Shown: positions 45,781 to 52,665 of the stretch, piece by piece | Layout: every line of letters starts with the position of its first letter | How positions within the stretch are numbered: the stretch's first letter is position 1 | NCBI GenBank assembly: GCA_965261395.1 | Contig: OZ253462.1 | Span: forward strand, 1,536,001 to 1,600,000 | Direction of reading: 5' to 3' | Source of the DNA: Candidatus Latescibacterota bacterium | Lineage (GTDB): Bacteria > Latescibacterota > UBA2968 > UBA8231 | DNA: 64,000 nt | The notes under the pieces: model-generated | What the model was told of the DNA's origin: nothing | Databases searched by the model: none | What the model saw: only the letters and a program-made list of their open reading frames with translations | Translations under genes and position numbers: made by a program

Positions 45781-48273
<2,493 letters not shown>

Positions 48274-48317: not shown

Positions 48318-49409
48318 TCAAAAATCCATCGCCGGCGGTCCCGCGTAGCCAATGCTCTGCCACCCAGCGACATCGCCGCCCGTGAGGCGATAGGGGTGCG
48401 GATACAGCTTCAGCGTGCGGTCCGCAAAAGGCAGGGACACCCGCTCGTGCTCCCGATGGGCCGAGCGCACCAAGGCGATAGCCACTTCGAGCGAGTGGCG
48501 ATAGTCGTCGCCGCTGCTATACGGCTCGGTGCCGACCTGATGGGCGCGTATCAGGCGCTCGACCGTATAGGCAAAAGCGTCCGCCGCTGACCGATCTAAA
48601 AAGTCGGGATACACCGGAGAAGCCGCCGCGCCGGTCCCCTCGATTAATACGGGCCGTGGACGCGCCAAAAAAACCTGCCCACGCTCGCCAACGACCGAGA
48701 TAAAGGTCGGCACGCGGCCATCCGGCTCAGGGGCGACGATCTCGCAGACAATGCCGCCGCTCAGACCCAAGCGGCCGTACGCAGGTACATCCCCCTCCTC
48801 TATAGGAGTGCCTTCAGCCACGTACCCCGGCTCCGCCGGCAAGGTGTACCCTTCCACCCATTCCACATCCATCCCAGTGAGGATGCGCAGCGCAGCAATC
48901 TGCACGCAACCGCCACCCGACACCTCGGTCGGCAGCCCACCCGGAATCGCCGCCGAGGTCAACCGTCCAATGTGCCCCTGCCGCACCCACTCGACCACCT
49001 CGGGCATATACGGCGTCGCCCATCCGGCCTGAGCGCAACCGAACAACGTGCCGTGCTCCCCGCAGATGCGGATCATTTCGTCCGCCTCGTGTAGCTGGTG
49101 AGAAATCGGCTTCTCGCAGGAAACCACTCGCACGCCAGCGCGAGCGCAGGCGGTGACGCAGGGATAGTTCTGGCTCACCGGGACCACTGCGGAGACAATG
49201 TCGGGCACTTCGGCCGCCAAAAGGCCGTCGAGATCGTCGTACACCTTCTCCACGCCGTAGCGCCGGGCAATGGCATCCCGCCGCTCTCTGGCGCGATCGA
49301 CGAGGCCGACAATCGTGCAATTGGGATGGGTGGCGTAGGCGCGCGTGTAGTAGCGGCCCCACGTGCCGGCCGCGCCGACGACGGCCACCCGGTATTGTTT
49401 ATTGGTCAT
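48318..49409 (-). CDS. Gfo/Idh/MocA family oxidoreductase
   Basis: VAVVGAAGTWG, PDIVS, CEKP. Confidence 0.85.
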   Translation of the reverse strand: MTNKQYRVAVVGAAGTWGRYYTRAYATHPNCTIVGLVDRARERRDAIARRYGVEKVYDDLDGLLAAEVPDIVSAVVPVSQNYPCVTACARAGVRVVSCEKPISHQLHEADEMIRICGEHGTLFGCAQAGWATPYMPEVVEWVRQGHIGRLTSAAIPGGLPTEVSGGGCVQIAALRILTGMDVEWVEGYTLPAEPGYVAEGTPIEEGDVPAYGRLGLSGGIVCEIVAPEPDGRVPTFISVVGERGQVFLARPRPVLIEGTGAAASPVYPDFLDRSAADAFAYTVERLIRAHQVGTEPYSSGDDYRHSLEVAIALVRSAHREHERVSLPFADRTLKLYPHPYRLTGGDVAGWQSIGYAGPPAMDF

Positions 49410-49422
49410 GTTAGCCTCCTGA

Positions 49423-49451
49423 TTGACGGGGATAGAGGTCGCGGTTATATT
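49423..49451 (+). promoter_or_regulatory. Sigma-70 promoter of the tyrS leader
   Basis: TTGACG-N17-TATATT. Confidence 0.75.
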
Positions 49452-49470
49452 TTTGCGCGGAGAATGAATA

Positions 49471-49530
49471 ATGCAGACCCTACGCGCAGATCGCCACTAC
49501 TATTATACCTCGCTTGATAGAGAGGGGTAG
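49471..49530 (+). CDS. tyrS attenuator leader peptide MQTLRADRHYYYTSLDREG
   Basis: GGAG RBS at 49459; three consecutive Tyr codons TAC TAT TAT at 49498-49506. Confidence 0.85.
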   Translation: MQTLRADRHYYYTSLDREG

Positions 49531-49562
49531 TGCGTTTGCTTTATTGTCTCAACCGCGTGTAC

Positions 49563-49589
49563 AAGCCCCTGATTACAGGGGCTTTTTTT
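49563..49589 (+). terminator. Attenuator terminator upstream of tyrS
   Basis: AAGCCCCTG-ATTA-CAGGGGCTT with T7 tract, ending 23 bp before the tyrS ATG. Confidence 0.85.
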
Positions 49590-49612
49590 ATGCCTATAAA
49601 TAAGGAAATGTA

Positions 49613-50860
49613 ATGAACATCATACCCGATCTTCAGTTCCGCGGCCTGATCTACCAAGCCACCGACCTCGACGGCCTCGCTGAGCGCCTTGCCGCCGGTC
49701 CGATCGTGCTCTACAACGGCTTTGACCCGACCGCCGACAGCCTGACGGTGGGCAACCTCGTGCCGATCCTGCTCCTGCGCCGCTTCCAGCTCGCCGGCCA
49801 CAAAGTCATCGCCTTGGCTGGCGGCGGCACCGGCCTGATCGGCGATCCAGGCGGCAAGACCGAGGAGCGCCAGCTCAATGCCACCGACGTCGTGGCCGAG
49901 TGGACGCAGCAGGTCAAAGCCCAGCTAGAGCGCTTCCTCGAATTCGACGGCCCCAACCCCGCAGTGATGGTCGATAACCACGACTGGCTTGGCCAACTCG
50001 CGGCCATCGACTTTATGCGCGACGTCGGCAAGCACTTTCCAGTCCCCTACATGCTGGCCAAGGACTCGGTCGCCTCGCGCCTGGAAACAGGCATTTCCTA
50101 CACCGAGTTCAGCTACATGGTGCTACAGGCGTATGACTTCTTGGTCCTCAATAAAGAATACGGCTGCGAGTTGCAGACCGGTGGCTCTGACCAGTGGGGC
50201 AATATCACCGCCGGCACCGATCTGATCCGTCGCTCCGCCGGCAACCGGGCCTTTGGCCTGACCTGCCCGCTAGTGACCAAAGCAGACGGCACCAAGTTCG
50301 GCAAGACCGAGGCGGGCACGGTCTGGCTCGACGCCGCGAAGACCTCGGCTTACCAGTTTTACCAGTTCTGGATCAACGTCGAGGACCAGAAGGTCATCGA
50401 TTACCTGAAAACCTACACCTTCTTGGAGCAAGACGCGATCCTCCAACTCACCGAAGCCGTCCGCGACCAGCCCGAACGGCGCGAGGCCCAGCGCACCCTC
50501 GCTGCCGAGGCAACAACCCTAGTCCACGGGGCCGATGCGACGCGACGGGCCGAAAACATCTCGCATGCACTTTTTTATGGGGCGTTTCAGGATCTATCCG
50601 AGGAGGAAATCCTCGAAGGCTTTGACGACGTGCCAACGCACGCGATGGGGCAGGAGGAACTGGGGCTGGTCGATCTGCTCGTCGCGGCCGGCGTCTCGCC
50701 CTCCAAGCGCCAAGCCCGCCAAGACGTGCAAAACGGCTCAATCTACATCAACGGCGAGCGCTGCACGGACATGGCGCGAAGCATGCGGTGCCAAGAGGGC
50801 CTACACGGCAAATACCTGATCGTGCGCCGAGGCAAGAAGCAGTACACCCTCGTCCGCTAG
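49613..50860 (+). CDS. tyrS: Tyrosine--tRNA ligase
   Basis: GFDPTADSL, YTEFSY..LQAYD, GGSDQWGN, KFGKT, C-terminal S4 domain RRGKK. Confidence 0.97.
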   Translation: MNIIPDLQFRGLIYQATDLDGLAERLAAGPIVLYNGFDPTADSLTVGNLVPILLLRRFQLAGHKVIALAGGGTGLIGDPGGKTEERQLNATDVVAEWTQQVKAQLERFLEFDGPNPAVMVDNHDWLGQLAAIDFMRDVGKHFPVPYMLAKDSVASRLETGISYTEFSYMVLQAYDFLVLNKEYGCELQTGGSDQWGNITAGTDLIRRSAGNRAFGLTCPLVTKADGTKFGKTEAGTVWLDAAKTSAYQFYQFWINVEDQKVIDYLKTYTFLEQDAILQLTEAVRDQPERREAQRTLAAEATTLVHGADATRRAENISHALFYGAFQDLSEEEILEGFDDVPTHAMGQEELGLVDLLVAAGVSPSKRQARQDVQNGSIYINGERCTDMARSMRCQEGLHGKYLIVRRGKKQYTLVR

Positions 50861-50871
50861 GAATCTGGGCT

Positions 50872-52665
50872 TTATTCCCACTCCACCGTGCCCGGCGGCT
50901 TGTGGGTAATGTCGTAGAAGACTGCCTCAATTCCCGCTAGCGCCAACAGCCGCTCGCACACGTCGTCCAAAAACGCCTGCGGCAATGTGCAAAAGCGTGC
51001 GGTCATAAAGTCGGAAGTCGCAATCGGCCGCAGCACCACACTCTCTTGGACTCCATCCGACGACAGCGGCAGCAGCACCGTTGGCATCTGGGTTACTTCC
51101 TCCATCAGCCCGTGGCGCTCCAACGCCTCCATGCTAATGGCATCGGCCCGGCGCAGGAGATCGAGCCGGTCGCGGGTTAAATACCCCACCTTGAGGCTTT
51201 GCTGCGGCCGCGGTATCGGCCCCAGCAGGTATATCACCCGATTGATCGACGGGAAGTTATTAGTCAGCTCGGTGGACAGCGCCTCCAGCGTCTTCCACTC
51301 GCTCTGGCCAGAGACCACCGCTGGATGCGCGTAGGTCCGCGCATCCCCCTGCACGCCGACGCTGCGCAACGGCAGCACATCGAGCGCTAGGCCGAATGTT
51401 GACGCCACCTTTTGCGCCTCAGCGACCGTCTCGGGTGCTACGTTCTCCGCGCTGGGCCCCTCGCTGCACAAGACCCGGACCGCCAGCCCCGGCCCTGGGA
51501 ACGGATGCCGCCAGACCAAGTGGTGCGGCAAGCCGAGCGTCTCGCCCAAGGTGCGCGCCTCGTCCTTGTAGAGCTGATCTAGCGGCTCGACGACCTTGCC
51601 CTCGGCCAACAGCTGATCGATGACGCCGACTCGATTGTGGTGGGTCTTGATGACCGCTGCGTTTTCCGTGCCGCCGGACTCGATAGTATCCGTGTAGAGC
51701 GTCCCTTGGCCCAACAGCCACTCGTCCGGGTCCAATGCCAGCGCCGCTAGCGCCCGGTCGCGGACGCGGATGAACTCCTCGCCGATCCGCAGCCGCTTCT
51801 CCTCTGGGTCGGCAATCCCCTCCGTGGCGGCGAGGAATTCCGTGCTGGCATCGACAACTTCTAGATTGTGCAGACCCGCCCCCTTCATCAGCCGCTCGAC
51901 CAGCGCGGTCTCGCCCTCGCGCATAAAGCCGTTGTCAATGTGCAAGCCCAGCACCCGCTCTGCGCCCAAGGCGCGGTTGAGCAGGAGGAACGCCACCGAC
52001 GAATCGACCCCACCGCTGACGAACAGAAAGACGTTGCGCCCCTTAGCCTGCTGCTGGATCCGCTCTATCACCTGCTCGATGTAGCGCTCCATCGTCCAAC
52101 TCCGCTCCGCGCCGCAGAGCATGGCGAAGTTATCGAGGATGTCCATGCCCCGGACGGTGTGCGTTACTTCTGGATGGAACTGCAAGCCGTATATCTTGCG
52201 CTCGGCGTCGCCCATTGCCGCGACCGGGCAGTCCTCGGTCGCGCCCAAGACAGTAAACCCGGGCGGCAACGCCGCAACGTGATCGCGATGGCTCATCCAC
52301 ACCCGCTCGCGTGCGTCCAACCCGCCTAGTACCCCCTCTGCCTTGTGGACTTGCAAATAGGCCGCACCAAACTCGTGGGTCGTCCCCCGCTCGACTTGGC
52401 CACCCAAGCGGTGGCAGAGCAGTTGGTGGCCGTAGCACAAGCCCAGCATCGGCTTGCCCATCGCCAAAATTTCGGGATTGTACGCCGGGGCTTGCGGGTC
52501 ATAAACGCTGGCCGGTCCGCCCGACAGAATCAGCCCGTCGGCGTCCTGCAAATCGGCTACCGCAGTCTCCGGCGAGCGGATCTCAGCATGGACGCGGAGG
52601 CGGCGAATGCGGTTGGCGATCAGGTGGGCGTACTGCCCGCCGAAGTCGAGGACGACGATGCTCAC
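50872..52665 (-). CDS. guaA: GMP synthase (glutamine-hydrolysing), long form
   Basis: LDFGGQY, GLCYG, QFHPE, SGGVDS, IKTHHN, HPFPGPGL, KPPGTVEWE. Confidence 0.97.
   Translation of the reverse strand: MSIVVLDFGGQYAHLIANRIRRLRVHAEIRSPETAVADLQDADGLILSGGPASVYDPQAPAYNPEILAMGKPMLGLCYGHQLLCHRLGGQVERGTTHEFGAAYLQVHKAEGVLGGLDARERVWMSHRDHVAALPPGFTVLGATEDCPVAAMGDAERKIYGLQFHPEVTHTVRGMDILDNFAMLCGAERSWTMERYIEQVIERIQQQAKGRNVFLFVSGGVDSSVAFLLLNRALGAERVLGLHIDNGFMREGETALVERLMKGAGLHNLEVVDASTEFLAATEGIADPEEKRLRIGEEFIRVRDRALAALALDPDEWLLGQGTLYTDTIESGGTENAAVIKTHHNRVGVIDQLLAEGKVVEPLDQLYKDEARTLGETLGLPHHLVWRHPFPGPGLAVRVLCSEGPSAENVAPETVAEAQKVASTFGLALDVLPLRSVGVQGDARTYAHPAVVSGQSEWKTLEALSTELTNNFPSINRVIYLLGPIPRPQQSLKVGYLTRDRLDLLRRADAISMEALERHGLMEEVTQMPTVLLPLSSDGVQESVVLRPIATSDFMTARFCTLPQAFLDDVCERLLALAGIEAVFYDITHKPPGTVEWE

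Follow-up and report, generated by a model that had tools for sequence, protein, structure and literature searches.

The gene for tyrosyl-tRNA synthetase, tyrS, of a Candidatus Latescibacterota bacterium is very probably controlled by a classical leader-peptide attenuator, with neither a T-box nor a member of an Rfam leader family detected ahead of it. We assign a probability of roughly 0.88 to the reading that this element is a ribosome-mediated transcription attenuator that senses the supply of Tyr-tRNA(Tyr), sets tyrS transcription and feeds back on the level of the synthetase. The basis of this reading is computational and consists of the anatomy of the locus, its conservation, the coding signature of a short ORF and the predicted geometry of the RNA. 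From these we infer the transcription start site, translation of the leader, ribosome stalling, termination and the relief of termination. The features lie in the window, the 64,000-nucleotide stretch of DNA that was analyzed, and their positions are collected in Table 1.

Table 1. The tyrS leader region: features, positions in the window and basis of assignment.
Feature	Position	Strand	Basis or remark
Sigma-70-type promoter TTGACG-N17-TATATT	49423..49451	+	Sole promoter-like site within 48500-51500
Putative transcription start	~49457-49459	+	From the position of the promoter
Shine-Dalgarno-like GGAG	49459..49462	+	8 nt 5' of the leader ATG at 49471
Leader ORF, 19 codons, MQTLRADRHYYYTSLDREG*	49471..49530	+	Translation; Tyr-containing counterparts at 61/68 family loci
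Arg codon adjoining the control codons	49492..49494	+	Invariant in 20/20 same-length leaders
Control codons TAC TAT TAT (Tyr x3)	49498..49506	+	TAT and TAC alternate at these positions in kin
Segment 1, C-rich, predicted anti-antiterminator	49507..49511	+	Pairs with the G-run when ribosome-free; fold and 3 consensus pairs in the alignment fold
Segment 2, predicted antiterminator G-run AGGGGT	49523..49528	+	Overlaps the leader's final codons and its stop
Intrinsic terminator, 9-bp stem, 4-nt loop, 7 T	49563..49589 (hairpin 49563-49584)	+	Found in 63/68 family loci
Terminator 5' arm GCCCCT, common to the antiterminator pairing	49565..49570	+	Sequence and fold
tyrS, tyrosyl-tRNA synthetase, 415 aa	49613..50860	+	TIGR00234, 399 bits vs cut-off 114

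The initial annotation of this DNA had described a sigma-70 promoter, a GGAG ribosome-binding site, a 19-codon ORF with three consecutive Tyr codons and an intrinsic terminator just upstream of tyrS. Each of these is present at the position given in Table 1, and no terminator-like site other than the hairpin occurs in 3 kb. The proposed partners AGGGGT and GCCCCT are likewise in place and pair with each other in a fold of 49517-49574. Read along the RNA, the order is Tyr codons, C-rich segment, G-run, stop codon, C-run (the terminator 5' arm), G-run and T tract. One helix had been overlooked: the C-rich codons directly after the Tyr run pair with the first G-run when no ribosome covers them. 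The gene downstream is the sole TyrRS match above the cut-off in the host genome. An alternative leader frame beginning at ATG 49464, with three Leu codons, was rejected; its start lies 1 nt from the GGAG, and many members of the genus lack this ATG.

Taken singly, the regulatory motifs carry little information. Shuffles of the region 48500-51500 are expected to contain 0.6 promoter-like sites (1 found) and 2.2 terminator-like sites (1 found), so neither the promoter nor the terminator alone is beyond chance. These chance-level matches would sit well with a simpler arrangement, in which a constitutive leaky terminator caps tyrS output and the ORF is a by-product of a conserved RNA sequence. 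What raises the attenuator above chance is conservation and the reading frame, not the single promoter and terminator matches.

We searched 168 genomes of the phylum for tyrS. The window's own family (f1) comprises 76 genomes, the host genome G000 included, of which 70 gave a tyrS match; 68 loci were examined, two partial matches being left out. A terminator precedes tyrS at 63 of the 68 loci, and a terminator together with a Tyr-containing ORF at 61, spread over 15 of 18 genera; because kin loci are not independent, these counts overstate. The 61 leaders are the union of two automatic parsers, each with missed loci, and six of them come from one parser alone. Their ORFs span 13-27 codons and end 23-42 nt 5' of the terminator, and the leader is kept down to about 62-65% TyrRS identity. 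Promoter boxes and spacing are the same in 32 of 33 loci checked, and the Shine-Dalgarno sequence is present in close genus members and weak or absent in distant genera. The initial annotation had proposed looking in relatives for a conserved run of Tyr codons. The Tyr-containing ORF is indeed conserved, but the run itself is not the constant: YY occurs in 43 of the 61 leaders and YYY in 26, and 7 contain a single Tyr.

Seven f1 loci lack the full element. One is cut by a contig end, four (genera g3, g17 and g18) are without the element, and L161 lacks a T tract, although a Tyr ORF can be read there by eye. The seventh, L146 (genome G136), keeps the leader frame, G-run and terminator; it has ACG where a sister genome has ATG and offers no ATG or GTG start, which could mean either a non-canonical start or decay. 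At L144 (genome G134) there is no terminator, a short ORF containing HYY ends 4 nt 5' of tyrS, and the tyrS match contains three stops; a translational variant, decay or an assembly error are all possible. In a quick tree of 69 TyrRS proteins, built without bootstrap, the enzymes of f1 group in a single clade (SH-aLRT 100). The four element-less loci are nested inside it, a pattern that reads as loss. Outside f1, in other families of the phylum, a Tyr ORF with a terminator directly before tyrS was found at none of 23 and none of 27 loci (0/50; one of the 27 is without upstream DNA). Within the genus, 11 of 29 members keep the leader next to a different upstream neighbor, so the divergent oxidoreductase gene beside it in the window does not explain its conservation. 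Among named TyrRS records, those closest to the window's enzyme bear Latescibacterota labels, some of them older ones; beyond the phylum, Paenibacillus enzymes are among the nearest TyrRS proteins.

We examined the predicted RNA switch by folding. The fold with no ribosome in place (-46.7 kcal/mol, z -3.85) contains both the terminator and a pairing of the C-rich segment with the first G-run. To represent translation, a ribosome was modelled as covering the A site plus 13 nt, an assumed footprint, and the probability that the antiterminator captures the terminator arm was computed on a nascent transcript ending just past that arm. For the window, capture is 0.99-1.0 with the ribosome on Tyr, 0.61 without a ribosome and 0.23 with the ribosome at the stop codon. 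Across the 61 leaders, 50 exceed 0.9 on Tyr, the other 11 being at or below that value, and 58 fall below 0.5 at the stop. Folding of the alternative structures, suggested in the initial annotation, thus predicts, for 49 of 61 leaders, capture on Tyr and release at the stop, as opposed to 1 of 23 GC-rich terminators of the host genome used as controls. Averaged per codon, capture declines from 0.92 on the final Tyr to 0.82 at +2, 0.46 at +3 and 0.21 at +6; in the model, the Tyr codons are the last positions that leave the antiterminator free. Mean capture is also about 0.8 with the ribosome 5 to 7 codons before Tyr, and folding by itself therefore does not mark Tyr out.

The energetics restrict how such a switch could work. 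The antiterminator fold (49517-49574) has an energy of -14.8 kcal/mol and a z of only -0.86, hardly stabler than shuffles, with genus means from -6.0 to +1.2. In full-length transcripts at equilibrium, the terminator forms in every ribosome state for the window, and for the relatives in nearly all among the rows listed. The switch would therefore have to be kinetic. The initial annotation had proposed looking for covarying stems in aligned relatives; for the alternative helices of the family leaders, tests for covariation were negative or weak, and the C and G runs hardly vary. Swap tests gave 19485 of 50000 for antiterminator versus terminator arm and 900 of 20000 for Tyr region versus stop region. 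The alignment fold does contain three consensus pairs between segment 1 and the G-run, with invariant core pairs. The negative or weak covariation results and the equilibrium preference for the terminator are again what a constitutive leaky terminator would lead one to expect.

With one leader taken per genus (n = 15), we counted 47 Tyr codons; 1000 dinucleotide shuffles with identical ORF choice averaged 5.1 and never exceeded 14. In the same set, TAY triplets are distributed 47:1:5 over the three frames. TAT and TAC alternate at the Tyr positions of the 20 same-length genus leaders, and changes occur as whole codons. Genus leader ORFs range from 18 to 21 codons, yet the gap from stop to terminator is fixed at 34-35 nt in 27 of 29 members. 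Among all 1171 residues of the 61 leaders there are 182 Tyr, 11 Phe and 1 Trp. The number of Tyr per leader is 1 in 7, 2 in 13, 3 in 24, 4 in 10, 5 in 5 and 6 in 2, and Tyr runs in f1 leaders reach six.

At 12 loci in genera g2, g6 and g26, the start codon lies exactly 7 nt 3' of the -10 box, at the predicted +1, which suggests that these leaders start leaderless. The host genome has one tRNA-Tyr gene, so TAT and TAC would report a single tRNA pool; the make-up of isoacceptors matters for attenuator sensitivity, as explained in the available text of PMC1183508. Metatranscriptome contigs of relatives from four runs cover the leader and tyrS piecewise, and show neither level, strand nor ends.

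If these ORFs sense amino acids, their codons might be expected to follow the gene they precede, and other leaders in the lineage show this pattern. A Thr-rich ORF (PTPTTATTTTT) and a terminator stand before thrS (G000:C1, minus strand, leader start 2275403). Thr-rich thrS leaders recur at 11 of 30 family loci under a strict filter, with 74 Thr, 2 Tyr and 12 Arg among 284 residues. The thrS leader was found in a genome-wide scan for upstream ORFs with terminators (of 1133 hairpins, 398 had a long ORF downstream and 170 an upstream ORF), which is not a clean null because one ORF was kept per terminator and another frame was picked at the tyrS locus. A 22-codon ORF with NNNN and a terminator-like hairpin precede a second AspRS-like gene, named by eye (G000:C1:2562910, plus strand). 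A Trp leader (RRWWRAWY) with a terminator precedes the fused TrpE-G gene (G000:C1:3052222, L238:423, plus strand). This host-genome leader has 3 Trp and 2 Tyr, and trpE clusters with trpS and tyrA. At 11 of 16 further family loci, trpE leaders carry 2-3 Trp and 0-2 Tyr. In other genera of the family, TrpE is of the unfused type. The terminators before pheS and asnS in the host genome were set aside, as they follow the upstream genes and come without a matching leader.

The arrangement in the sister families f2 and f4 extends this comparison. There, 7 of 8 loci have tyrS at the end of a trpE-G-D-C-F operon, the gene names having been tested in one locus. Leaders with 3-6 Tyr plus Trp and Phe, followed by a terminator, precede trpE-G-D-C-F-tyrS at 6 of the 8 (L230, L231, L233, L234, L235 and L237); for L230 and L231, the fold test gave no switch at the stop codon. 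Tyr codons thus appear to be many where tyrS lies downstream and few where it does not, although the genes behind tyrS in the f2 and f4 operons could also explain them. A leaky terminator with an incidental ORF accounts poorly for leaders of matching amino acid before other genes. Nor does it anticipate the in-frame Tyr excess with synonymous interchange of TAT and TAC, the coincidence of start codon and predicted +1 in three genera, or a G-run positioned under the end of the ORF. We consider it highly improbable.

Tyr is not the only residue enriched in the leaders. The 279 residues of the one-per-genus set include 49 Arg, about as many as the 47 Tyr, and Arg adjoins Tyr 33 times where 15.4 are expected (0 of 20000 permutations), spelled with five different codons (CGC, CGA, CGT, CGG or AGA). 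These observations raise the possibility that the same ribosome-coupled switch takes its main signal from the speed of Arg-Tyr decoding, through the state of tRNA modification, the supply of Arg or a slow-down that depends on the peptide. Two further features point the same way: 7 leaders have a single Tyr among several Arg, and TAT:TAC is 29:18 in the leaders compared with 1.1:2.0 in long ORFs of the genome. However, the regulated gene is tyrS, Tyr content follows the location of tyrS, and the runs expand with Tyr, not with Arg. Arg is rare in the thrS leaders. It also flanks Trp in the trpE leaders of the family, which makes it resemble a habit of this lineage in aromatic leaders, possibly one that serves base pairing. 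Overall, a signal based mainly on Arg-Tyr context seems improbable to us, and Tyr-tRNA(Tyr) supply remains the preferred signal.

In E. coli trpL, Arg follows the Trp pair. The trpE leader DRRYWWR of genus g20 resembles the tyrS leader DRRYRR of genus g26; their terminators are not alike, so common descent is a guess. Speculatively, and with the odds in our view clearly against it, the tyrS leader might be an offshoot of an Arg-flanked trp-operon leader, carried along or copied when tyrS left that operon, in which Arg slows the ribosome so that a single Tyr on a leaderless mRNA can act as a sensor. If true, such an Arg-assisted single-Tyr sensor would be a minimal attenuator design outside the multi-codon model.

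A different class of explanation does without a translated leader. tyrS is the founding T-box gene, and the synthetase encoded by E. coli thrS binds a tRNA-like element in its own mRNA. By analogy, the tyrS leader could bind a ligand directly, either tRNA in a T-box-like manner or TyrRS at a tRNA-like element. The T-box is the published mechanism for tyrS in the available text of PMC3315439, and 18 of 20 Paenibacillus-type TyrRS homologues carry a T-box motif upstream; in that comparison, the motif was flagged at no Latescibacterota locus. In the 64-kb window, no Rfam family other than a tRNA matched at its gathering score, and no T-box family was among 15 weak matches. The leader is about 130 nt long, versus 322 for the Enterococcus T-box leader (available text of PMC3315439), and elements of this kind need neither an ORF nor multiple in-frame codons. 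Direct ligand binding therefore receives very little weight. Of the weak matches, Phe_leader (RF01859; 24.1 bits, E 0.076) and Trp_leader (RF00513; 17.5 bits, E 0.56) lie over the switch region, with scores far below the gathering thresholds of 55 and 41 for membership.

Ribosome-mediated attenuation of tyrS, the reading offered in the initial annotation, agrees with how the locus is conserved, with its coding signature, with the geometry predicted for the switch and with the correspondence of leader codons to regulated genes. According to this model, RNA polymerase would start near 49458 and a ribosome would follow on the leader ORF. With ample charged tRNA, the ribosome would pass the Tyr codons and cover the G-run where the ORF ends; the terminator would then form, and transcription would end about 25 nt 5' of tyrS. 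With scarce charged tRNA, the ribosome would wait on a Tyr codon and cover the C-rich segment, leaving the G-run free to capture the terminator 5' arm and letting polymerase read into tyrS. More synthetase would restore charging, closing a negative feedback loop like that of pheST.

The model places the leader among several known systems. pheM is the leader of the E. coli pheST attenuator. Like pheST, the predicted trpS and leuS leaders of Streptomyces (available text of PMC1262725) and the predicted His leaders of a Bacillus hisS paralogue (available text of PMC2965389), the element would combine a short cognate-codon ORF, an antiterminator and an intrinsic terminator before a synthetase gene. 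It differs from all of these in pairing Tyr with tyrS, in sharing no sequence family with them, in its occurrence in Latescibacterota, in having as few as one control codon and in its probable leaderless starts in three genera. With the trp, pheA and his operon attenuators it has the four-segment logic and spacing in common, but it would control a synthetase and not a biosynthetic operon. The tyrS T-boxes of Bacillus subtilis and Enterococcus durans (available text of PMC3315439) share the gene, the tRNA-Tyr charging signal and terminator readthrough. Here, in contrast, the signal would be read through a translating ribosome and not by tRNA binding, and no T-box sequence or Stem I was found. 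The leaderless sensor ORF predicted for g2, g6 and g26 recalls the leaderless poly-Cys short-ORF attenuators of mycobacteria (available text of bioRxiv 10.1101/834739), which differ in amino acid, target gene and phylum; in the window, the leader starts from a Shine-Dalgarno sequence.

Such a mechanism is in itself textbook material. For the pairing of Tyr with tyrS we found no published case of a leader-peptide attenuator in full-text literature; supplements and subscription surveys could list one. The available main text of PMC2965389 contains neither 'tyrS' nor 'tyrosine', that of PMC11109978 has no match for tyrosine, and four supplements of PMC4833913 gave no match. The available texts of PMC9413887 and PMC12612679 likewise contain no such attenuator for tyrS or tyrosine. 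Those of PMC3082878 and PMC1173090 include, respectively, pheL and predicted attenuators before tyrA whose type is not given. In the available text of PMC1262725, tyrosine is given as T-box regulated, with no conserved structure for it in Actinobacteria.

If the model is correct, the gene and signal served elsewhere by the T-box would be handled by the ribosome across a family of an uncultured phylum that appears to have Thr, Trp and Asn leaders as well. The 61 natural variants, with 1-6 Tyr codons and both Shine-Dalgarno and leaderless starts, could help establish how many control codons are needed, a question testable in E. coli. The 190-nt element is also a candidate for a compact tyrosine biosensor.

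The three neighboring genes described here are on the minus strand. A Gfo/Idh/MocA-type oxidoreductase (window 48318-49409), the upstream neighbor in 18 of 29 genus members, begins only 13 nt away from the tyrS -35 box, which means that the promoter of this gene must overlap the leader or promoter of tyrS on the opposite strand. On the far side, a GMP synthase gene (window 50872-52665) runs toward tyrS; 11 nt separate the two stop codons, and no terminator-like site was found there. Its product has 597 aa, about 85 more than the family model. Beyond the oxidoreductase, a GcvT-like/FAD oxidoreductase (window 45781-48249) appears to be divided into a front piece of 87 aa (47986-48249) and a remainder of 731 aa, possibly by a frameshift or an early stop.
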